Assembly (NCBI GenBank): GCA_963774705.1
Contig: CAVZFW010000010.1
Span: 323,706-387,705 of the forward strand
Length of the DNA stretch: 64,000 nucleotides
Source: an uncultured delta proteobacterium
GTDB lineage: Bacteria > Desulfobacterota > Binatia > Binatales > Binataceae
Direction: 5' to 3'
In this document: positions 3,191 to 63,380 of the stretch, piece by piece
Position numbering within the stretch: position 1 is the stretch's first letter
How the letters are laid out: the number at the start of each line of letters is the position of its first letter
Position numbers and translations under genes: made by a program
The notes under the pieces: generated by a model
The model's database searches: none
Told to the model about the DNA's origin: nothing
What the model saw: only the letters and a program-made list of their open reading frames with translations

Positions 3191-3589
3191 GCCTGCTTCA
3201 CCGCGACCTTGGATTCCGTTGCATCGCCGGAGCTGCGTCACGCCCCAGCTTCCGCGCAATCGTTCTCGAGCTCTGGCTTCTCTGAGCGCTTTTCCGATCA
3301 TTCTGCTCCAGCCGCATAGCCGCCGGGTCGGACCTCCTCCTGCAACCATTGAGATCAGCCGTCCGGAAGATGTTGTTCGCAAGCTCCTTGCCACGGCGGA
3401 TGACCGCTCGGATGCCGCGCGGATACACACCTTTTTGGAATTTTGAATGGCAGGGCGCGAAACGGGCCGAGCAATACTTACCGAGCTAGGTAAGCATTAC
3501 GCGTCCGATAACCTGTTGTTCGTCCGCGGACCGTCCAGCCAAACGCGCTTTTGCGATCGACTCGTTCGCTGCGAACAAAAATCGCCGTG

Positions 3590-9734: not shown

Positions 9735-10220
9735 TGAAAACCGTGGTGCTGCGCCATTGCGGAGAACGTATGCGCAAAACCAATGCCATCAGGTTCGCTC
9801 AAGGGATTTCCGAGATTTCTGGCCGATCTCAGCGACCGTAAGGCGGGATTTCCAAAAACGACGGTTCATTCTCGGCGAAGTTTTACCGACCAACGGCAAT
9901 TGTTACAGTGCTCAAATCATCTCCTTTGCACGCGTCTTACCGGCACCGACGCGTATTGATGAGGCGGGACCTGGTATTCTGGGGTCCATACGCCAACAGC
10001 ACTGAATCTGTGCGAGACGTTGGATGAAGCGCCGGCGCCTGATTCTTCGTCTCGCCGGTGTAGTCATCGACAGCGCGACACTCTTCGCCGAAGTTTTCCC
10101 GGCGTCGGGGCTGCTTGCCGCGCTTGGCTACCGTCCGAATCTCGCAGCGACCGTTTAGGTCCTTGTGGAATTGTGCCATAACCCTTCCAATATCAAGCAA
10201 ATTTGCTGAGGAGATAGACG

Positions 10221-11183: not shown

Positions 11184-11723
11184 TCGGCCAAAATTCGAGT
11201 CTCGATACTGAAGACGGCAATCCTTTCGTCAGACGCCGGATGCTGATTGAAAGCACCTTCGGAAATTGAGTGACGGTTAGACTCCCGCAGCGATCCGTCA
11301 GGATTGAAACCTGCGATTTCGCATAGATTACGAAAATTGAAGATGCTGTAGCGGCTGGTCATCCTTGACGGGTGCATTCTGGAATCCCTCGTTAATCGAA
11401 TTGCTCAAATTCTTCAAGCAACAAAAGTGCCAGCGTTGGAGTATTCGAATTCCGTAATCGATGACTTACCTTTGTAAACCTATAGTACGGATTGATGCCG
11501 ATGATATGTCTCGATTTCGGTCACGCCGGTTGTACCACCGATACTTTGCCTCCAGTTCCGGCGATTGGTTCTACGAATTCCTGATTCGTGTAATTTTTTG
11601 CCGGAAATCCAGATTCCTGCGATCGGCGTCAAACGCAACTGCGTGGGGAGCGGAGGAGAATGTGGCGAAAGGGGTTACGAGAAGTTCGAGTCGAGGTCGC
11701 GACCAGAAGAGCGGGGAACGATT

Positions 11724-53961: not shown

Positions 53962-55047
53962 ATGAAAGCCGCAATTTTTCATGGGCCGAACCAGCCCCTT
54001 TCGATCGAAGACGTCGAGATCGACAAGCCGCGCGAGCGCGAGGTCCTGGTGCGCACCGTCGCCAGCGGCGTCTGCCATAGCGACCTTCATTTTGTCGATG
54101 GCTTCTACCCGTTTCCGGCGCCCGCGATTCTCGGCCATGAAGCCGCCGGCATCGTCGATTCGGTCGGCAGCGAAGTCACCTACGTCAAATCGGGCGACCA
54201 CGTAATCTGCTGCCTCTCGGTGTTCTGTGGCTATTGTGCGGATTGTATGTCGGGCCATCCGAATCGATGCACCAACAAAGCGGCCGTGCAGCGCGCCAAG
54301 GGCGACACACCGCGGCTCTCGCAAAAGGGCAAGATGATTCGCCAGTTCGCGGACCTCTCGACCTACGCGGAAAACATGCTCGTGCATGAGAACGCGCTGG
54401 TGAAAATCACCAACGAGATTCCGCTCGACCGCGCAGCGCTGATCGGCTGCGGCGTCACCACCGGCGTCGGTGCGGTGCTCAACACGGCGCGCATCGAACC
54501 GGGCTCGACGGTCGCGGTCTTCGGCTGCGGCGGTGTGGGCCTGTCGGCGATCCAGGGTGCGAGGATAGCGGGCGCACGGCAGATCATCGCGATCGATCAA
54601 TTCGAGAACAAGCTCGCGATGGGAAGGAATCTCGGCGCCACGCATACCGTCGATGCGTCGCATTCGGATGCGGTCGAAGCGATTCGCGAACTGACCGGCG
54701 GCGGCGTCGATTACGCCTTCGAGGCGGTCGGGATGAAGAAGCTCGCCGAGCAATGCTTTGAATGCATCAAGCCGGGCGGGACCGCGACTATCATCGGCAT
54801 GATTCCGGTCGGCCAGAAAGTCGAAATCGACGGTGCCAAGTTGCTCACCGAGCGTAAGATGCAGGGCAGCAACATGGGCTCGAACCGCTTCCGCGTGGAC
54901 ATGCCCCGCTACATCGATTTCTACCTGCAGGGACGGCTCAACCTAGACGACATGATCAGCAAGCGGGGTAAGCTCGAGGACGTTAATGACGCGTTTGTGG
55001 CGATGAAGAAAGGCGAGGTCGCGCGCACGGTGCTGATGTTCGAATAA
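53962..55047 (+). CDS. zinc-dependent alcohol dehydrogenase (class-III/mycothiol-dependent-formaldehyde-dehydrogenase-like), copy 1
   Basis: AAGGAG RBS before ATG 53962. GVCHSDLH, GHEAAG, structural-Zn Cys cluster CGYCADCMSGHPNRC, GCGGVGLSAIQGA Rossmann motif. Confidence 0.85.
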   Translation: MKAAIFHGPNQPLSIEDVEIDKPREREVLVRTVASGVCHSDLHFVDGFYPFPAPAILGHEAAGIVDSVGSEVTYVKSGDHVICCLSVFCGYCADCMSGHPNRCTNKAAVQRAKGDTPRLSQKGKMIRQFADLSTYAENMLVHENALVKITNEIPLDRAALIGCGVTTGVGAVLNTARIEPGSTVAVFGCGGVGLSAIQGARIAGARQIIAIDQFENKLAMGRNLGATHTVDASHSDAVEAIRELTGGGVDYAFEAVGMKKLAEQCFECIKPGGTATIIGMIPVGQKVEIDGAKLLTERKMQGSNMGSNRFRVDMPRYIDFYLQGRLNLDDMISKRGKLEDVNDAFVAMKKGEVARTVLMFE

Positions 55048-55136
55048 CTACTCATTCGGAAGATCGGAATACGCAGTTACGGATTGACCAATAGCCAGAA
55101 CTCAAGAAACACCGGAAGCCAAGGAAGTAAGACATC

Positions 55137-56222
55137 ATGAAGGCAGCCATTTTCCACGGACCCAAGCAGCCACTGACGATCGAACAGGTCGATATCGACG
55201 ATCCGCGCGACCATGAAGTTCTCCTGCGCACCGCGGCGACCGGCGTCTGCCATAGCGACCTCCATTTCGTGGACGGCTACTATCCGTTTCCAGCCCCGGC
55301 GATTCTCGGTCATGAGGCCGCCGGCGTCGTCGAGAAAGTCGGCAAGGCCGTGAGCTACCTGCAGCCGGGCGACCACGTGATTTCGTGCCCGTCGGTGTTT
55401 TGCGGCTTCTGCGAGGAGTGCATGACCGGCAACCTCCATCGCTGTTCGAATCGTCGCGCGACCCAACGACCCAAGGGCGACACGCCGCGGCTTTCGCAGG
55501 GCGGCAAGATGGTGCGGCAATTCTCGGACCTTTCGACCTACGCCGAGAAGATGCTCGTGCATGAGAACGCGCTGGTGAAAATCACCAAGGAGATTCCGCT
55601 CGATCGCGCTGCGCTGATCGGCTGCGGGGTTACAACGGGTGTGGGCGCCGCGCTCAATACTGCCAAGGTCGAGCCGGGCTCGACGGTCGCGGTGTTCGGC
55701 TGCGGCGGCGTCGGTCTCTCGGCGATTCAGGGTGCGAAGCTGGCAGGCGCGCGGCAAATAATCGCGGTCGATCAGTTCGAGAACAAGCTCGCGATGGCGA
55801 AGCACTTTGGCGCGACGCATACGGTGGACGCGTCACATGCCGACGCGGTCGAGGCGATCAACACGATGACCGGGGGCGGCGTCGATTACTCGTTCGAGGC
55901 GGTCGGCGTGGCCAAGCTGGCCGAGCAATGCTTCGATTGCATTAAGCCGGGCGGGACCGCGACGATTATCGGAATGATCCCGGTGGGACACAAGGTCGCG
56001 CTCGACGGGCCTAAGTTCCTCACCGAGCGCAAGATCCAGGGCACGATGATGGGGGGCAATCGCTTCCGTATCGACATGCCGCGCTACATCGATTTCTACC
56101 TGCAGGGACGGCTCAATCTTGATGACATGATCAGCAAGCGCGGCAAGATCGAAGACGTCAACGAGGCCTTCGCGTCGATGAAGAAGGGCGAGGTCGCCCG
56201 CACCGTACTGATGTTCGACTAG
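55137..56222 (+). CDS. zinc-dependent alcohol dehydrogenase, copy 2 (tandem paralog)
   Basis: Same length (361 aa) and colinear with copy 1, with identical long blocks such as GVCHSDLHFVDG.YPFPAPAILGHEAAG and MPRYIDFYLQGRLNLDDMISKRGK. Confidence 0.85.
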   Translation: MKAAIFHGPKQPLTIEQVDIDDPRDHEVLLRTAATGVCHSDLHFVDGYYPFPAPAILGHEAAGVVEKVGKAVSYLQPGDHVISCPSVFCGFCEECMTGNLHRCSNRRATQRPKGDTPRLSQGGKMVRQFSDLSTYAEKMLVHENALVKITKEIPLDRAALIGCGVTTGVGAALNTAKVEPGSTVAVFGCGGVGLSAIQGAKLAGARQIIAVDQFENKLAMAKHFGATHTVDASHADAVEAINTMTGGGVDYSFEAVGVAKLAEQCFDCIKPGGTATIIGMIPVGHKVALDGPKFLTERKIQGTMMGGNRFRIDMPRYIDFYLQGRLNLDDMISKRGKIEDVNEAFASMKKGEVARTVLMFD

Positions 56223-56259
56223 CTCAGCTCGACTTACGACTCATAAAGACAGAACAAAA

Positions 56260-56285
56260 GGGCCGGTCCTCGAAAGGACCGGCCC
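56260..56285. terminator. perfect GC-rich hairpin between convergent genes (bidirectional terminator)
   Basis: gggccggtcc-tcgaaa-ggaccggccc, flanked by aaaa on one side and ttatcgtt on the other. Confidence 0.7.
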
Positions 56286-56405
56286 TTATCGTTGGTCGAT
56301 CACTACTTGCGGCGCATGTTCATGCGAGCGCCTGTGCGTATGGTGCCCTTTTTCACCAGCGGTTGAAGTCCGTCCGCATTGATCTCATCGATGCCATAAG
56401 CGCGG

Positions 56406-57638
56406 TTAGTTGATGGCGCTGTCGCGACGGCGCATTAACGCGTCAACGTCGAACTTGAAGATCCGCGCCGCGTTGAGGCCGAGGATCTTCGCGCGCTGTT
56501 CTTCGTTAAGATGGCCCATCTGACGCTCGATCGATTCCGCCGAATGCGGCCACACGCCCTCATGATGCGGGTAGTCGTTGGCCCACATGAAGTTATCGAC
56601 CAGGTTGTACTTAACCGCGAGGTCGAGCCCGACGCGATCTTCCTGGAAGGTGGTCGCGCCGTTGCTGCGGAAGTATTCGCTCGGCATCTTCGGCAGTTTC
56701 GGAAAGGCCCACATGTGATGTTTGCGATACGCCTCGTCCATCGCGTCGAGCGCCCATGGCACCCAGCCGATGCCGCATTCGATGGCGGAGAAGCGAATCT
56801 TCGGATAGCGCTCGATCACGCCCGAGGCGCACAGATTGGCGATCGGCTCGATGGTCGGCGAGAGCGAATGCGAAACGTAGTTGATGACCGCGCCGCCGTC
56901 CTTGCGCGCCGCCCGCGGATCGCGGCCGGTCGAGATGTGAAAGGTGATCGGCAGGTCGTGATCCTGAATCGCCGCCCACATCGGATCGTAGATGTGCAGG
57001 TTGTAGTTGGGATGGCGGGCGTCGTAGTTGCCGAAGATCGGCTTGCACGGCAGCGTGAGTCCGCGATAGCCGAGTTTGGCGACGCGCTCGATCTCGGCGA
57101 GCGCCAGGTTGACGTCGGAGGTCATAATCGCGGCCATCGGGGACATGAAGCTGTTGTACTGGCCGAAGGTTTCCCACGCCCAGTCGTTGTAAACCTTGCA
57201 TTGCGCGGCGCCGAATTCGGCATCCTGCGTCGCCCACATCAGCAGGCCCTTGTTGGGGAAGATGATCTCGGCGTCGATGCCGTCGCGCGCATGATCGCGG
57301 ATGCGTTGTTGCGGATCGTAACCGGCCTTGTTGCGCTCGAGATCCTCGCCTTCGAACTTGAAGGCAAAGTCAGGCGCGCGCGACTTCTGCCAGCCTTCGG
57401 AGACCATCCACTTGACGCCATTCTCGTCGGTCTCGATGTGGGGCAGGCGCTTGCGATACTTCTCGTCCATCCGCTCGGCCCAGAGGCCGGACGGCTCGTT
57501 GCAGTGGCAATCGGTCGAGATCATCAGGTAGCGGTTTGGATCGCCGGGTCGGGCCGAGCGTTTCCAACCGTCGTGGCCGGGCGTTTCGAGGCGCCAGGAG
57601 TTATTGGGGTCAACAGTCGTATTGGTTTCCTCGATCAT
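56406..57638 (-). CDS. amidohydrolase_2 family protein, paralog A
   Basis: GGAGGA RBS. NSWRLETPGHDGWKR...YLMISTDCHCNEP...ANDYPHHEGVWPHS...LGLNAARIFKFDVD. Colinear with 62079-63329. Confidence 0.75.
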   Translation of the reverse strand: MIEETNTTVDPNNSWRLETPGHDGWKRSARPGDPNRYLMISTDCHCNEPSGLWAERMDEKYRKRLPHIETDENGVKWMVSEGWQKSRAPDFAFKFEGEDLERNKAGYDPQQRIRDHARDGIDAEIIFPNKGLLMWATQDAEFGAAQCKVYNDWAWETFGQYNSFMSPMAAIMTSDVNLALAEIERVAKLGYRGLTLPCKPIFGNYDARHPNYNLHIYDPMWAAIQDHDLPITFHISTGRDPRAARKDGGAVINYVSHSLSPTIEPIANLCASGVIERYPKIRFSAIECGIGWVPWALDAMDEAYRKHHMWAFPKLPKMPSEYFRSNGATTFQEDRVGLDLAVKYNLVDNFMWANDYPHHEGVWPHSAESIERQMGHLNEEQRAKILGLNAARIFKFDVDALMRRRDSAIN

Positions 57639-58140
57639 CGCTTCCTCCGTGAGCCGTGGTGATGCGTAGGATCCGGTTCAGGTGACAAAGCGAGAGTAAT
57701 GCGCCTCCAGATTCATGTAAAGCGAGCGAAAATTGGCTTTGTTATTTCGCGATTATCGAGGCTTTCATTGGGGAAAATTGGGTTCGTTCTGTTCCCGCCG
57801 CTTCGGATCGTGTTCCGGGTTCGACTTGTGGGGCTGGGCGGCTCTCAGAAAGAAGCAAAGCGAAGTTGATATTGAATCCAGGTAGCTGTGGAAACACGAT
57901 GTGCGCGCCTCGTTGCTTTGAGCGCTAACTCACAGTAGCACAAAGTTAAGGGTTCGTATTGTGGGTCGTGGAAGAGGTGGAATTGCCGGTCGAGGCACAA
58001 CCAGCCAGAACGAGCAAAGCAAACACGGCGATGCGGCGGGGCTTTGTTGGCTTAGTTCCACCAGAATTATCGACGATTTGTCATGAGCGCCGAAGAGTTG
58101 GACGGCAAACATTCTCAGTAGGGATCAACCAAGAACATTG

Positions 58141-58169
58141 GTATAAAGAGTCCGGATGGAAATCCGGAC
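58141..58169 (-). terminator. rho-independent terminator of the 59021->58261 two-gene unit
   Basis: On the minus strand: gtccggat-ttcc-atccggac followed by tctttatac. Confidence 0.65.
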
Positions 58170-58260
58170 ACCGCGGCAACCATCATGATTTCGAATCGAT
58201 CGCCGTGACGGTGTGCAGGCATACCGTTGACGATCGTGGTCTGCCGAGCGGGCCGGGGGG

Positions 58261-58527
58261 TTACATTGAGAAGATCTTGCGGACGGCGGCGGGCGCCAAC
58301 CAGGCGATGCCGAGGGCTTCGCAGGCGGAGCCGCCTAACATCATCAGTTGGCTGCTCGCGGCGGACTGCGGCGCACCGAAGGCACCGAGCAGCATCACGC
58401 CGGTGCCGCCGATGGCGAAGACCCACGGCACGATCGTAAAGCGCTTCCCGGATGCGCTTTGATCGAGGTAGGCGTCAACTCGCTCCGCTGAAAGTTCGTC
58501 ATGCGAGATCGGTTTTTTAAATAACAT
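58261..58527 (-). CDS. hypothetical small 2-TM membrane protein
   Basis: AGAGGA RBS 7 nt before ATG 58527. Sequence MLFKKPISHDELSAERVDAYLDQ..., then two hydrophobic stretches FTIVPWVFAIGGTGVMLLGAF and LMMLGGSACEALGIAWLAPAA. Confidence 0.45.
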   Translation of the reverse strand: MLFKKPISHDELSAERVDAYLDQSASGKRFTIVPWVFAIGGTGVMLLGAFGAPQSAASSQLMMLGGSACEALGIAWLAPAAVRKIFSM

Positions 58528-58595
58528 CGGCAATTCCTCTTTGGTGGTTGCTCAAATCAACAGTGGAAGCTAAACCGGGTCGGCAGCCTGACCGC

Positions 58596-59021
58596 TCAGG
58601 CCTTGATAAGCTCGTATCTGCGGGGGACTGTGAGCTGCAGAAATTGGCGAAACGAATCCAGGCCCGTTTTGCGAATCACTTCGCGATAGCCGGCCGGCGA
58701 TCCTTTCTTGACCGTCCAAAGCTGGCGGTCGAAATCGATAACGATCAGAGAGTCCCCGACGCGCAGATTGCCACGTGAACCGAAATGATTGAGGGAGAGG
58801 CCGAATTCGCTCGCGGCCTGATCCCAATAGACCCATGAGCGACGGGTATCGAGGCGCGGTTCGCGCGTCACCCGGACGATTTCGTCCGGATGAAGCGCAA
58901 GGTCATCGGCGAGTCTCTGCGCCAGGCGGGTAGCGTTTTCAACCTCGCCGGGCGTGGCGCCCCGCTCGCAGATGACCTGGCGAAGCAAAGCTGTCTTTCT
59001 CAGAGCGGCTTCACGGTTCAA
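58596..59021 (-). CDS. hypothetical protein with DUF2786-like N-terminal helix pair (phage/plasmid-associated motif)
   Basis: TTG start with GGAG 9 nt upstream. ALRKTALLRQVICERGATPGEVENATRLAQRLADDLAL resembles the DUF2786 pattern (K..KLLAL.....NEAE.A..KAQEL). The remainder is not recognised. Confidence 0.4.
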   Translation of the reverse strand: MNREAALRKTALLRQVICERGATPGEVENATRLAQRLADDLALHPDEIVRVTREPRLDTRRSWVYWDQAASEFGLSLNHFGSRGNLRVGDSLIVIDFDRQLWTVKKGSPAGYREVIRKTGLDSFRQFLQLTVPRRYELIKA

Positions 59022-59183
59022 TTTAGATACTCCCGATAGAATTGAGCACTTTTGCGCTAATATTTGTCTGTATGACTATGGTACGCATCTCTATGGTGAT
59101 AAGAGTTGCACAGCTGAAACAAAGTGTCAAGATAACATGACACTAATTTGCGTCCAAGCAACAACTAGCGAGATGACATAGAG

Positions 59184-59200
59184 CTTTTACGATGTAAAAG
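59184..59200. promoter_or_regulatory. perfect inverted repeat CTTTTAC-gat-GTAAAAG flanked by ACTAGCG direct repeats (59164-59170, 59201-59207) in the divergent AT-rich intergenic region
   Basis: Read directly. Candidate operator for the adjacent HTH protein. Confidence 0.4.
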
Positions 59201-59308
59201 ACTAGCGTAACTAGTCAAACAGCGATATGGCACAATTGTTGCGGCAATAGGCTCGATTGGGATGCACTCAAGGCGTCTGGGCGGGGCGGACGTCGTAGGG
59301 CATCCAAC

Positions 59309-59314
59309 TATAAT
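59309..59314 (+). promoter_or_regulatory. consensus -10 hexamer TATAAT about 27 nt upstream of ATG 59341
   Basis: catccaacTATAATagattgcaattGAGAGGGtcgcacacATG. No good -35 seen. Confidence 0.3.
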
Positions 59315-59340
59315 AGATTGCAATTGAGAGGGTCGCACAC

Positions 59341-60492
59341 ATGGAGTTAAGCCTCGCAGGAAGCATCCGAACGCCGTTCGGAGAAGTGGAACTGATTCCG
59401 CAGGATCGACGTCTGCTACAGGCCTCGAGCCCGGAACCGCTCCGCTTCGGTGATCTGAGAATACATCTATGGGTACTGTTCGAGCAGACGGGCGGGATCT
59501 GGACGGTTTCGCAGGTGGCCGCGCCCGTGCTGCGTCTGGCGGGTCGATCGGCGCCGACGTCGCCGATGCTGGGCGAGTCGATTCGATCGGAAATTATGAA
59601 GACGGTCGCGGCACTTGCCGGCGAGTGGGCGTTCGCACATCCGGAGGCGTTCGCGTGCGCGGCAGCCGAGGCCTTCGAGTTGGACAAAGAGGGATTGCAT
59701 CGTGAATTGGGAACGCTGAAAGAGTCGCTGACGAGTTCGGCGCATGCGATGGAATCGATAAGGTCGATGGCTTCCCCGGAGAGCGACGCCAGGCTGCGCG
59801 AGTATCTGCATCGGATGAGGCAGATGGCCTCGGACGTGCCCGCGATGCAGGAGATTGCACGGAAGATCGCGTATCCGGAGGAGCGATCGCGCCTGCCGAA
59901 CGAACTGCTCCGGCTGACGTTCGATGCACCAACTATCAAGGGCAAATCGAAGGATCGGCGAGAGGCGAGCGCGGCGGGGGCGGTCGTGGACAGTCGATTA
60001 ATCGAGGGCTCGAGCGAGGGCCGGCAGGATCAATCGAATGTGCAGGAGACGCTTGGGCAGGTTTTGAAAACCGCGCGGGAGAAAAGCGGACTCTCGCAGG
60101 ATGATCTGGCAGTCAGGCTGGGAATCGCGGCGGACGACGTCGCGCAACTCGAGAGCGATCGCGGGGCGCGGCCCTCATTTCCGCTGCTCGGCCGGGTCGC
60201 GGACCTTATGAGGCTCGAAAAAGATCGGCTCTTTCAATTGGCCGAGACGCGCACGAAGTCTGCTGAGGGCGCGGGAAAAGTAATGCCCGGTGCAAAAAGC
60301 AACGGCACGGTCTGGAAGGTATTCGCGCGGGACCGCGCGCTGCTCGATCGGTACAACGTCCAGCCGCACGAACTCAGAGCGCTTGGGAAAGTCAGCCTGA
60401 TGGGCAAGGTTACCAATATAGAAGCGCTGCTATTTATTCTCGAGTCGATGCGCAAGGCGGACGACGATCCGGACGATAACGGCGACGAATAG
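59341..60492 (+). CDS. XRE-family helix-turn-helix protein with ~230-aa unknown N-terminal domain and unknown acidic C-terminal tail
   Basis: LGQVLKTAREKSGLSQDDLAVRLGIAADDVAQLESDRGARPSFPLLGRVADLMRL is a classic HTH_XRE motif, at residues ~237-295 of 383. Confidence 0.6.
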   Translation: MELSLAGSIRTPFGEVELIPQDRRLLQASSPEPLRFGDLRIHLWVLFEQTGGIWTVSQVAAPVLRLAGRSAPTSPMLGESIRSEIMKTVAALAGEWAFAHPEAFACAAAEAFELDKEGLHRELGTLKESLTSSAHAMESIRSMASPESDARLREYLHRMRQMASDVPAMQEIARKIAYPEERSRLPNELLRLTFDAPTIKGKSKDRREASAAGAVVDSRLIEGSSEGRQDQSNVQETLGQVLKTAREKSGLSQDDLAVRLGIAADDVAQLESDRGARPSFPLLGRVADLMRLEKDRLFQLAETRTKSAEGAGKVMPGAKSNGTVWKVFARDRALLDRYNVQPHELRALGKVSLMGKVTNIEALLFILESMRKADDDPDDNGDE

Positions 60493-60528
60493 GCTCAACG
60501 TCACAGCATTTAAAAGGTGCCGGCCGCC

Positions 60529-61734
60529 TCATAACAAGGGGGAGGGGCGGGTGTCGTCGGACTTGAGGAACAGCGAGCCGACCATCTCGAGCGTTCGGCG
60601 CTGGCCGATGATGTGCTGGCACCAGGTCTCGGCGTCGCGCAACGCCCGATCGAAGGCGCTCTTTTTGGTGTAGATGGCGCTGCCGCCAACGGAATCGAAG
60701 AGCAAGCGGATAATCTGGCGCGACGACTGGCAGACGTTGACGTTCGAGAGCCATAGATCAGCGCGCTCCTGCTCGGTCGGTTGCTCGTTTTTGACCAGCC
60801 GCTTCCAGTGCCGCTCGATAGAAGTGAAGGAGTATGAGCGCGCGGCCCCGAGGAGCATCTCGGCTTCGGCGACTGCGGTCTGAATGCGCGCGAGATTCTT
60901 GTAAGGACGGTTGCTCGGAAACTCGATCTTGCCCTGGATGACTTCGAGGAACATATCGATGGTCGAGCGCGCGACACCGAGCGGGACGCCGGAGCCCTTG
61001 GGCAGAATCGCGTTGTTGCGCCGCCAGATGGGACCCTCGCGTTTGGCGGGCTCGAGGAAGCTGAAGGTATGGCGCTCGGGGACGAAGAGGTCGGCCACGC
61101 GGTAGTCGTTGCTGCCGGTGCCGCGCAGGCCAGTCGTGTGCCAGGTGTCCTGAATCTCGAAATTCGAGACGGGTGCGAGCGCGATGCGCCAATTCGGCGC
61201 GCCGGCTTTATTCTTGGCGGGGATGCCGTTCTCGTGCACGATACATCCGGCGGAAACGACGTCGGCGTGCGTGACACCCGACCCGAACATCCATTGGCCG
61301 GTGACGCGATAGCCACCGTCAACGCGCTCGGCGCGGCCGGCTGGCCAGACCCATCCGGCGGTAGCGAGGTCGAGGTGCTGATAGAGTTCGCGACCGGCAT
61401 CGTCGTCGAGAAAGCCCGAGTAGATGCCCGAATCGCAGCCGATCATCACGCACCATCCGACGGCGGAATTGGCGCGGGAAAGCTCCTCGATGACTTCGAC
61501 CTGCTCGATGGTGCTGAGTTCGGGGCCGCCCCATATATGCGGCATCGTCAGGCGGAAGAGGCCGGCCTCACGCACGCGGGCGACAACGTCGGGCGGGAGT
61601 CGGCGGGCCTCGTCGCAGGCGTTGGACTGCTCCCTGAGGTAGCCGCGCAGGGCACGGGCGTTGGCGTAGATGTCGGACACGCTGAGCGGGCGTCCGGGGA
61701 GCACTCCGGATCGATTCACGGCGGTGGCGGTCAT
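60529..61734 (-). CDS. acyl-CoA dehydrogenase-fold flavoprotein (HsaA/DszC-like flavin-dependent monooxygenase type)
   Basis: 401 aa. LPPDVVARVREAGLFRLTMPHIWGGPELS...GWCVMIGCDSG...GYRVTGQWMFGSG...TGLRGTGSNDY. AAGGAG RBS. Confidence 0.65.
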   Translation of the reverse strand: MTATAVNRSGVLPGRPLSVSDIYANARALRGYLREQSNACDEARRLPPDVVARVREAGLFRLTMPHIWGGPELSTIEQVEVIEELSRANSAVGWCVMIGCDSGIYSGFLDDDAGRELYQHLDLATAGWVWPAGRAERVDGGYRVTGQWMFGSGVTHADVVSAGCIVHENGIPAKNKAGAPNWRIALAPVSNFEIQDTWHTTGLRGTGSNDYRVADLFVPERHTFSFLEPAKREGPIWRRNNAILPKGSGVPLGVARSTIDMFLEVIQGKIEFPSNRPYKNLARIQTAVAEAEMLLGAARSYSFTSIERHWKRLVKNEQPTEQERADLWLSNVNVCQSSRQIIRLLFDSVGGSAIYTKKSAFDRALRDAETWCQHIIGQRRTLEMVGSLFLKSDDTRPSPLL

Positions 61735-62078: not shown

Positions 62079-63329
62079 TTAGTGGGCGGTGGTTTGCGCG
62101 GATGCCCGACGCTTGAGCAGCAGATCGATGTCGAATTTGAAAATCCGCGCGGCGTTAAGGCCGAGGATTTTCGCGCGTTGATCTTCTTTGAGCTGGCCCA
62201 TCTCACGTTCGATGGCCTCGGCGGAATGCGGCCAGGTGCCCTCGGCGTGCGGATAGTCATTGGCCCACATGAAATTGTCGACGAGGTCGAAACGTTCGGC
62301 GAGTGCGAGACCGGCAGGGTCTTCCTGAAACGAGGCGGCGCCGTTGCTGCGGAAGTATTCGCTCGGCAGATGCTTGAGCTTGGGAAAGGCCCACAGGTGA
62401 TGCTTGCGATACGCCTCGTCCATCGCAGTGAGCGCCCATGGCACCCATCCGATGCCGGATTCGATGGCGGCGAAGCGGAGCTTCGGGAAACGCTCGATCA
62501 CGCCTGACGCGCAGAGACTCGCGACCGGCTCGATGGTCGGGGCGAGCGAATGGGCCGCATAGTTGATGACCGCACCGCCGTCGTGGCGCGCGGCGCGCGG
62601 ATCGCGGCCGGTCGAGACGTGGAAGGTTGCGGGGAGGTCGCAATCCTGGATGAGCGCCCACAGCGGATCGAAGATCGGCAGATTGTAATTGGCGTGACGG
62701 GCGTCATGGGCGCCCCAGATCGGCTTGCATGGGAGCGTCAGGCCGCGAAAGCCGATTTTCGCGACGCGCTTGATTTCGGCCATCGCAAGGTCAAGATCGG
62801 CGGTGAAAATCGCGGCCATCGGCGACATGAAATCGTTGTAAGGACCGTAAACCTCCCACGCCCAATCGTTCCACACGCGGCATTGTTCGGCGCCGAACTC
62901 GGGGTCTTGCGTGGCGAACATTGCGAGGCCCTTGTTGGGAAAAACGATCTCGGCGTCGATGCCGTCGTGCATCTGGTCGCGAATACGATCGAGCGGGTCG
63001 CGGCCGGCATTGCCGCGCAGGCGATCCTCCCCGCCCTTGGGCGCATCGTCCTTGGAGACGGGCCGCACACGCGAGCGTTGGTAGCCCTCGACGACCGTCC
63101 ACTTGACACCCTTGTCGTCGATTTCGATGTGCGGCAGGCGGTTGCGAAATTTCGCGTCGATGCGCTCCCACCAGAGCTTGCTCGGCTCGTTTACGTGGCA
63201 GTCCGCCGAGATCATCAGGTAGCGATTGGGATCGTCGGGATGCGCAGTGCGCTGCCAGCCGTCGTGGCCGGGGGTTTCGAGGCGCCAGCGATTTTTCTCG
63301 TCGACCTGGTGAGTGATCTCGTCGATCAT
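62079..63329 (-). CDS. amidohydrolase_2 family protein, paralog B
   Basis: ATG 63329 (MIDEITHQVDEKNRWRLETPGHDGWQR) matches the start of paralog A. YLMISADCHVNEP...ANDYPHAEGTWPHS...LGLNAARIFKFDID. Confidence 0.75.
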   Translation of the reverse strand: MIDEITHQVDEKNRWRLETPGHDGWQRTAHPDDPNRYLMISADCHVNEPSKLWWERIDAKFRNRLPHIEIDDKGVKWTVVEGYQRSRVRPVSKDDAPKGGEDRLRGNAGRDPLDRIRDQMHDGIDAEIVFPNKGLAMFATQDPEFGAEQCRVWNDWAWEVYGPYNDFMSPMAAIFTADLDLAMAEIKRVAKIGFRGLTLPCKPIWGAHDARHANYNLPIFDPLWALIQDCDLPATFHVSTGRDPRAARHDGGAVINYAAHSLAPTIEPVASLCASGVIERFPKLRFAAIESGIGWVPWALTAMDEAYRKHHLWAFPKLKHLPSEYFRSNGAASFQEDPAGLALAERFDLVDNFMWANDYPHAEGTWPHSAEAIEREMGQLKEDQRAKILGLNAARIFKFDIDLLLKRRASAQTTAH

Positions 63330-63380
63330 TTCAATGCTCCAGAGATACCGGGGAGTTGTCGAGGAGCTCAAAACCTTTAT

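Follow-up and report, generated by a model that had tools for sequence, protein, structure and literature searches.

In this study, we analyzed a window of 64,000 nucleotides (nt) from an uncultured member of the Binataceae (contig CAVZFW010000010.1, positions 323,706 to 387,705), which lies on contig C10 of a metagenome-assembled genome (MAG; G000, 4.0 Mb, 65% complete), and focused on a small islet of three genes between metabolic genes. Two of them are on the minus strand: a DUF2786-family gene (hereafter A; 58596-59021, an open reading frame (ORF) of 141 aa) and a gene for a protein with two transmembrane (TM) segments (B; 58261-58527, 88 aa from the ATG at 58527). B would comprise 90 aa (58261-58533, minus strand) if counted from an upstream TTG; an AGAGGA ribosome-binding site precedes the ATG by 7 nt, and relatives keep this start. 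The third gene (C; 59341-60492, plus strand) encodes a 383-aa protein with an XRE-type helix-turn-helix (HTH). The A-B unit is followed by a terminator-like hairpin on the minus strand (GTCCGGATTTCCATCCGGAC, then TCTTTAT; 58169-58150, feature span 58140-58169), which has an 8-bp stem (5 G-C pairs) and a 4-nt loop and is found 92 nt past the B stop codon. A and C are separated by a divergent, AT-rich control region of 319 bp (59022-59340; 44.5% GC vs 59.8% in the window). An earlier note on this DNA, made from the letters alone, had described the same minus-strand unit opposite C, a clean terminator at 58141-58169 and an AT-rich divergent gap of about 320 bp, and all of these were recovered here.

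The three-gene order was seen again in at least six independent metagenome contigs, where counts of independent contexts are to be read as upper bounds, since the related contigs are mostly short and common ancestry is possible for several allele groups. The dN/dS values were 0.24-0.37 for C, 0.13-0.33 for A and 0.10-0.18 for B, and those of the flanking enzymes were 0.03-0.11. Because the gene order recurs on independent contigs and dN/dS is low, A, B and C are, as judged from these comparisons, real genes under purifying selection and no chance frames.

The most informative part of the islet is its control region. An alignment of 19 loci over the 330 nt in front of C revealed a block of ~140 nt that is conserved better than the proteins. 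This block contains a predicted sigma-54 (-24/-12) promoter of C, TGGCACAATTGTTGC, at 59228-59242 on the plus strand, with a predicted start site near 59254 and ~98 nt before the C ATG. The pattern TGGCA-N6-TTGC corresponds to GG-N10-GC, and the TGGCAC-N5-TTGC spacing is kept. TGGCA is present in 17-19 of the 19 loci and TTGC in all 19, compared with 30-70% conservation in the spacer and flanking columns. In the window, the site agrees perfectly with the -24/-12 consensus, as does only one other site in the 64 kb. The host genome encodes rpoN (G000:C10:90137-90613) together with at least 15 genes for bacterial enhancer-binding proteins (bEBPs, the sigma-54 activators), and the ~145-aa HTH paralogues of C described below lack such a promoter. 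On these grounds, C is very probably transcribed from this predicted sigma-54-dependent promoter. As far as sequence can tell, the divergent region is thus not a simple autoregulated sigma-70 operator, a point that the earlier note had missed. Further TGGCA-N6-TTGC matches in the window occur at 11418-11432, 9774-9788 and 3379-3393 (all on the minus strand); the first of them also matches the consensus perfectly and is directed antisense into the 3' side of an esterase-like gene.

Upstream of the promoter lie two related, enhancer-like dyads of ~21 nt each. Dyad 1, AGTTGCA-N4-TG(A/C)AACAAAG (59104-59124), is conserved in the 19-locus alignment and is centred ~140 nt upstream of the predicted start; dyad 2, ATTTGC-N6-AGCAACAA (59146-59165), repeats it, and the two centres are ~42 nt, or four helical turns, apart. 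Between them is a palindrome, GTGTCA-N8-TGACAC (59124-59143), the right arm of which is conserved and the left arm variable. Dyads and palindrome are placed 65-125 nt further upstream of the promoter, at about -100 to -140 from the predicted start, and the whole genome has only one occurrence of the combined dyad pattern. The geometry of these putative enhancer-like sites is that of a classical bEBP enhancer. The dyads are conserved in all allele groups, including loci in which C lacks the HTH (L054, L062/63, L066 and L067). Since they are kept where C has lost its HTH, they are not merely operators of C itself. As judged from the aligned loci, the constant core of the cassette is the putative enhancer, the predicted sigma-54 promoter and gene C.

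Several other candidate elements in the control region were considered and set aside. The palindrome GTGTCA-N8-TGACAC showed no consistent covariation as an RNA hairpin and is read as a candidate protein-binding DNA site. A 6-3-6 palindrome (59185-59199) as an operator and a TATAAT (59309-59314) as a promoter of C are not conserved across the loci. A sigma-54 promoter for A on the minus strand was rejected on spacing (GA-N9-GC, not GG-N10-GC), and no convincing sigma-70 promoter for A was found. The predicted 5' leader of C (59255-59340) carries a G+C-rich inverted repeat, GGCGTC...GACGYC, a possible leader hairpin that is conserved in part in allele groups I and II. An Rfam search of 57500-60700 gave no credible match.

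As to protein C, the earlier note had placed an XRE HTH in mid-protein, after ~230 aa that could not be assigned, and both statements proved right. The HTH spans aa 238-295 (60052-60225, plus strand) and exceeds the Pfam gathering cut-offs for HTH_31 (E 2.2e-9, 37.9 bits; cut-off 27) and HTH_3 (E 6.9e-6, 26.4 bits; cut-off 23). An AlphaFold2 (AF2) model built with 34 sequences (mean pLDDT 69) places in front of it an orphan N-terminal domain (aa 1-177; 59341-59871, plus strand; pLDDT mostly 80-90), which consists of seven beta strands (aa 7-66) followed by three long helices (aa 79-177), and a disordered linker (aa 178-237; 59872-60051, plus strand) with pLDDT <50 at aa 181-234. This linker contains indels and is the most variable part of the 34-sequence alignment. 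The HTH is followed by a helical C-terminal domain of four helices (aa 322-374) with an acidic tail (60304-60492, plus strand), assigned from the AF2 model and Foldseek. The N-domain has no Pfam or PDB-sequence match, and a Foldseek search of the whole protein against PDB gave matches limited to the HTH/C-terminal half and none for the N-domain. Its profile found 19 matches among 1.84 billion representative proteins. These include distant stand-alone homologues of the N-domain (180-203 aa, without Pfam domain), one of which (P0108 in L052) has HTH_17, DnaB, ClpP and a phage replication initiator (phrog_3926) as neighbours on a contig that resembles a phage. The HTH plus C-terminal domain (aa 234-375) has stand-alone relatives of ~145 aa in 23 of 24 related family genomes, two of them in the same genome as the window. 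In Foldseek, this half matched DdrO best (6jq1, E 3e-4 over 138 columns), then Stl, SinR and C-proteins. According to the model, the C-terminal half of C resembles repressors of the DdrO/SinR type with a helical oligomerisation domain.

bEBP genes adjoin the cassette in three lineages. In L046/47 and L057, a 355-aa receiver-less bEBP (GAFTGA, AAA+ and HTH_8) is located after A. An orthologous bEBP with 84% nt identity lies just upstream of a truncated C in L063, and in L053 genes for REC and Sigma54_activat proteins are divergent from C. The receiver-less bEBPs begin with MLFKNPVSQDALEAPLDESAPK in L046 and MLYKKPVSQEALEAPLDEGAPK in L057 and lead straight into the AAA+ domain (GPLFGRSLAMRR), while B of the window begins with MLFKKPISHDELSAERVDAYLDQSASGKR, followed by its first TM segment. 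The peptide MLFKKPVS.DA.EA.LDE.APK (~22 residues) thus opens both B and the receiver-less bEBP. Judging from this shared peptide, the third gene of the cassette is one of two alternatives: a membrane-anchored form of the peptide (B), or the same peptide on a constitutively built activator, here termed the B'::bEBP fusion. The N-termini of the L046 and L057 activators are ~93% identical whereas their C proteins differ by 30-40%, which argues that the fusion is old and maintained.

Protein B has two hydrophobic segments (~aa 30-52 and 59-80), in line with the two TM segments proposed earlier; it consists of an acidic N-terminal peptide (~25 aa) and two glycine-rich TM segments. Orthologues were found in L030, L031, L045, L048 and L064, and no match was obtained in Pfam, PHROGs, PADLOC or NCBIfam. 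A relationship of B to Imm_superinfect was considered and rejected, as the two are unrelated. The assignment of A to DUF2786 in the earlier note holds for the family and is weak for the window protein: DUF2786 (PF10979) was recognised in 11 of 17 aligned relatives (best E 9e-7), while the window protein remains below the cut-off (E 0.25; 11.8 vs 23.9 bits). The AF2 model of A (pLDDT 79 overall, >90 for aa 60-130) has an N-terminal helical hairpin of the DUF2786 type, a disordered linker and a confident alpha-beta5-alpha C-terminal domain. Foldseek searches with A were not significant against PDB (best E 0.2) or BFVD (best E 4e-3), and one BFVD match was a DUF2786 protein. In the literature, we found mentions of DUF2786 and no functional study. 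A is frameshifted in L030 and L057; these frameshifts in metagenome copies may be sequencing errors. In addition, 11 of the 12 genus genomes carry a single-copy paralogue of A (~147 aa, 35-44% identity) in a conserved neighbourhood with MoaA-like and thiolase-like genes and without an HTH or membrane partner. The paralogue loci (G000:C7:166377-166775, here L005, and L015-L023) give a stronger DUF2786 signal than A, and by sequence the paralogue is a conserved chromosomal DUF2786 protein.

The earlier note had taken the three genes for an islet between metabolic genes and had proposed a comparison with strains lacking it. Such a comparison was possible with two empty sites in the same genus. 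G007 and G010 share the order ADH-ADH-amidohydrolase-ACAD with the window and lack the cassette: the distance from the amidohydrolase start to the ACAD stop is 324 and 190 bp, respectively, vs 2,890 bp in the window. The flanking genes are an Amidohydro_2 gene (AMH1, 56406-57638) and an ACAD-fold gene (60529-61734). Since homology with the empty sites stops at ~57730 and restarts exactly at the ACAD stop at 60529, the variable segment is, by this alignment, 57731-60528, slightly larger than the interval originally noted. Its left part is a variable non-coding spacer (57731-58140, GC 53%), which past its first ~155 nt is unlike the syntenic locus L030. No recombinase or integrase ORF was found within 57731-60528, a tRNA scan of the window found none, and no boundary repeats or att sites were seen around the islet. 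The GC content of the cassette (60-61%) equals the genome average.

The distribution of the cassette is patchy. The N-domain of C is present in two of the 165 species genomes of the family, and the first ~230 aa of C are absent from all 40 relatives first searched. A pattern scan of 185,579 species genomes, from which the window's own genome may be left out, gave one relative, in one other genome. B was found in one of 41 genomes, with no homologue in the 40 related ones. In metagenomes, ~50 clusters of full-length C (47-78% identity) and 24 close clusters of A were detected, and one C relative carries the name Candidatus Binataceae. In L030, L031, L045 and L048, the ACAD gene is 96-98% identical to that of the window and the cassette is at the same site. 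We have hardly any doubt that the cassette is accessory. Going by these searches, it is confined to a few Binataceae lineages, in which alleles and sites have changed.

The relatives of C fall into five allele groups. Group I (window, L031, L048 and L045) has A and B at the ACAD site, with N-domain identities of 79-86% among members (97% between L031 and L048). Group II (L030, L057, L058, L056 and L064; 74-86% among members and 62-73% to the window) is more diverse: L030 occupies the AMH1/ACAD site with a frameshifted A and an intact B, L057 lies elsewhere with a frameshifted A, the B'::bEBP fusion in place of B and an IS91 fragment nearby, L058 has A only and B is missing, and L064 has both. 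Group III (L046/47 and L065; ~60% to the window) has A and the same B'::bEBP fusion, and in L065 there is a breakpoint inside the control region. In group IV (L024, L027 and G126; 60-63% to the window), C is alone and divergent from a PNPOx-like gene. Group V comprises many clusters of 221-235 aa (56-57% to the window), in which C is truncated inside the HTH and A is absent; these truncated forms keep the sigma-54 promoter and the dyads and are conserved at the same length in many clusters. The C allele of L030 shows only 71% N-domain identity to that of the window though the flanks are 97-98% identical, and its nearest relatives are at other sites (L057, 83%). The dS values are 0.35-1.5 for the cassette vs 0.25-0.33 for the flanks. 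Because one site holds two diverged alleles, group II occurs at other sites as well and the dS of the cassette exceeds that of the flanks, the cassette has, on this comparison, been gained, replaced and rearranged over time.

Some further observations were made on these loci. The C alleles of L065 (5873-6573) and L046 (1059-1755) are 96-97% identical, and homology ends inside the enhancer, ~125 nt before C. Both A and the bEBP are absent from L065, and the control region seems to contain the breakpoint of a recent rearrangement. In L054 (2630-3937) and L067 (597-1877), an Imm_superinfect (PF14373) membrane protein comes immediately after the truncated C. A 204-aa divergent neighbour of the truncated C in L054 was examined as a homologue of A and rejected. 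The islet of L030 (L030:7251-9277) is ~2 kb longer between C and ACAD and carries after C a 207-aa HNH endonuclease and two secreted/unknown ORFs of 170 and 141 aa; with these extra genes, the AMH1/ACAD gap acts as a small hotspot for variable genes. Around the islet, the window (53962-57638 and 62079-63371) contains tandem 361-aa ADH genes (80% identical) and two Amidohydro_2 paralogues (~72% identical). They are conserved as pairs in L030, G007 and G010, and these duplications therefore predate the islet.

Among known systems, the phage-shock system pspABC of Escherichia coli with its activator PspF is likewise divergent and combines, within a single short intergenic region, a -24/-12 promoter with activator sites upstream of it. 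It also resembles the cassette in having a small membrane protein in the unit and, for L046 and L057, an activator without receiver domain. However, no PspA/IM30 domain was found by Pfam in A, B or C, the product of the sigma-54-dependent gene here is a DNA-binding protein of the XRE type, a bEBP in cis is lacking in the window allele, and B, with two TM segments, shows no similarity to PspB or PspC. DdrO of Deinococcus, SinR of Bacillus and Stl of SaPI share with C an HTH followed by a helical C-terminal domain and were its best Foldseek matches; in contrast to them, C has ~235 extra aa (orphan domain and linker) in front, its sequence similarity to them is confined to the HTH, and it is under predicted sigma-54 control. 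Unlike in the DdrO/IrrE and SinR/SinI pairs, no COG2856 (ImmA/IrrE) metalloprotease or SinI-like partner was found in the islet or the related loci. The DUF2786 proteins of phages, plasmids and actinobacteria have the helical hairpin of the A family; the alpha-beta5-alpha domain of A has no match. In lambda cI-rexAB, T4 Imm and P22 sieB, a repressor-like gene is likewise linked to small membrane proteins, and relatives of C adjoin Imm_superinfect; here, however, there is no prophage, and no viral contig with the family appeared in our scans. Toxin-antitoxin (TA) modules of the paaR-paaA-parE type also have three small genes, an HTH regulator and an accessory distribution, but the islet has no toxin domain, and its partners are dispensable or replaceable across alleles.

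Our best explanation is that the islet is a mobile transcription-factor cassette gated by sigma-54 and a bEBP, and we give the whole chain about an even chance of being correct. A bEBP would bind the two dyads ~100 and ~140 nt upstream of the start site, a step that we consider reasonably probable and infer from the conservation of the dyads and from the bEBP genes adjoining the cassette. Because the window cassette has no bEBP, a chromosomal paralogue of the NtrC type would have to supply the activation in this genome. RNA polymerase with sigma-54 would then transcribe C from TGGCAC-N5-TTGC at 59228-59242, a step supported at the sequence level because the promoter is kept across the 19 loci. 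C, as a dimer or tetramer, would bind DNA through its HTH, most likely in the same 319-bp region, and set the expression of A and B; for this control of the A-B unit our confidence is tentative, with doubt slightly prevailing. The N-domain would work independently of DNA binding, since forms without the HTH persist in group V, and would probably bind a partner or a signal. A and B would be the usual partners of C. Because the first ~22 residues of B are also the N-terminus of the receiver-less bEBP that replaces B elsewhere, B, the bEBP and the switch appear to be linked. A more specific version, a self-contained, horizontally mobile sigma-54 switch based on partner exchange, in which the shared peptide is a docking motif for A or for the N-domain of C and in which B and the activator compete for the same partner, is speculative and, in our view, quite unlikely. 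Were it true, C would be made in a sigma-54-dependent way in response to a signal from the membrane or from infection, and DUF2786 and the orphan domain would gain a first function.

Several findings weigh against such a cassette. In two allele groups (L024/L027 and the truncated forms), C is found with neither A nor B, and setting A-B expression is thus perhaps not its chief role. The adjacency of bEBP genes comes from three to four lineages, possibly of shared ancestry. The window cassette has no bEBP of its own, and the closest chromosomal homologue (G000:C3:72292-73251) reaches no more than 61% identity overall and 67% in the HTH_8 segment. Neither an operator for C nor a promoter for A was pinned down in the control region, and the likeness to DdrO and SinR is weak (E 3e-4, TM-score ~0.45) and was obtained with a model of mean pLDDT 69.

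The islet could also be read as a remnant of a phage or integrative element, or a moron, that gives immunity or superinfection exclusion, with C as a CI-like repressor, B as an exclusion protein and A as an accessory factor. The phage or plasmid flavour seen in the earlier note is found in indirect hints: DUF2786 is typical of phage and plasmid proteins, the L030 islet holds an HNH endonuclease and extra ORFs, an IS91 Y2_Tnp fragment lies 1.7 kb from the L057 cassette, Imm_superinfect directly follows the truncated C in L054 and L067, and a stand-alone N-domain homologue sits among HTH_17, DnaB, phrog_3926 and ClpP genes. The patchy distribution and allele replacement at one site would fit as well. 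Against this reading, the islet lacks integrase, tRNA and att-like boundary repeats and has the GC content of its genome. No relative of the N-domain or A was found in IMG/VR, and tblastn searches of 50,697 phage genomes and 72,556 plasmids found none. B bears no relation to Imm_superinfect, a chromosomal paralogue of A is conserved, and a sigma-54 promoter on the "repressor" gene is not a classical immunity layout. We consider this origin, which corresponds to the prophage-immunity or abortive-infection reading of the earlier note, unlikely. The proposal of that note as a whole, a resemblance to remnants of a TA, abortive-infection or prophage-immunity system, gained no positive evidence and is unsupported in its TA and abortive-infection form. 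As had been noted, no toxin or nuclease motif is visible, and none was found for A, B or C in Pfam, NCBIfam or PADLOC; in PADLOC-DB v2, the HTH of C matches generic models only (HTH_VI, capH and the RmrA N-terminus) and A and B match none, and PHROGs and NCBIfam gave nothing beyond the HTH. A tripartite TA-like module, in which B or A is the toxin, the partner neutralises it and C controls transcription, would agree with the compact layout of two small co-directional genes opposite an XRE regulator, a weak HTH-level likeness to antitoxins of the HipB/HigA/MqsA type, the possibility that a small membrane protein depolarises the membrane, and the patchy distribution. Nevertheless, A is frameshifted with B intact in L030 and with the bEBP in B's place in L057, B is missing in L058 and replaced by the bEBP in L046 and L057, the paralogue of A is single-copy and conserved without a partner, and the fold of A is unlike known toxins and antitoxins (best PDB E 0.2). 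Such a module is thus highly unlikely.

Alternatively, C could be a local regulator of the neighbouring catabolic genes (amidohydrolase, ACAD-fold and ADH), with an N-domain that senses a metabolite. sigma-54/bEBP control is common for catabolic operons, which would suit this reading, as would the native GC content of the cassette. An Amidohydro_2 gene adjoins C in two unrelated contexts (window/L030 and L024/L027), but this adjacency is weak evidence because the genome has ~40 copies of Amidohydro_2. Moreover, genomes that lack the cassette have these metabolic genes intact and side by side, C is also found in unrelated contexts (L046, L054, L057 and L062), the N-domain resembles no known ligand-binding fold, and the enhancer pattern occurs nowhere else in the genome, all of which make a local regulator decidedly improbable. 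The frameshifts of A in L030 and L057, the truncated C variants and the L065 breakpoint inside the enhancer might instead point to a decaying, functionless remnant. This is extremely unlikely: dN/dS is well below 1 for all three genes, the promoter is kept across the 19 loci, the window copy is intact, and the truncated forms of C make up many conserved clusters of identical length.

XRE regulators are well known, as are sigma-54 enhancers. To our knowledge, and without a targeted literature search, an XRE protein with an orphan 180-aa domain that always comes with a sigma-54 promoter and enhancer appears to be an undescribed arrangement, and the present one moves, in addition, together with a DUF2786 protein in a small cassette. 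The practical value would be modest until a phenotype is found. Binatia are an abundant uncultured soil lineage, and the sigma-54-gated cassette may offer a way into the role of DUF2786, into a domain family with only ~19 representatives in 1.8 billion proteins and into the exchange of sigma-54 circuits in Binatia.

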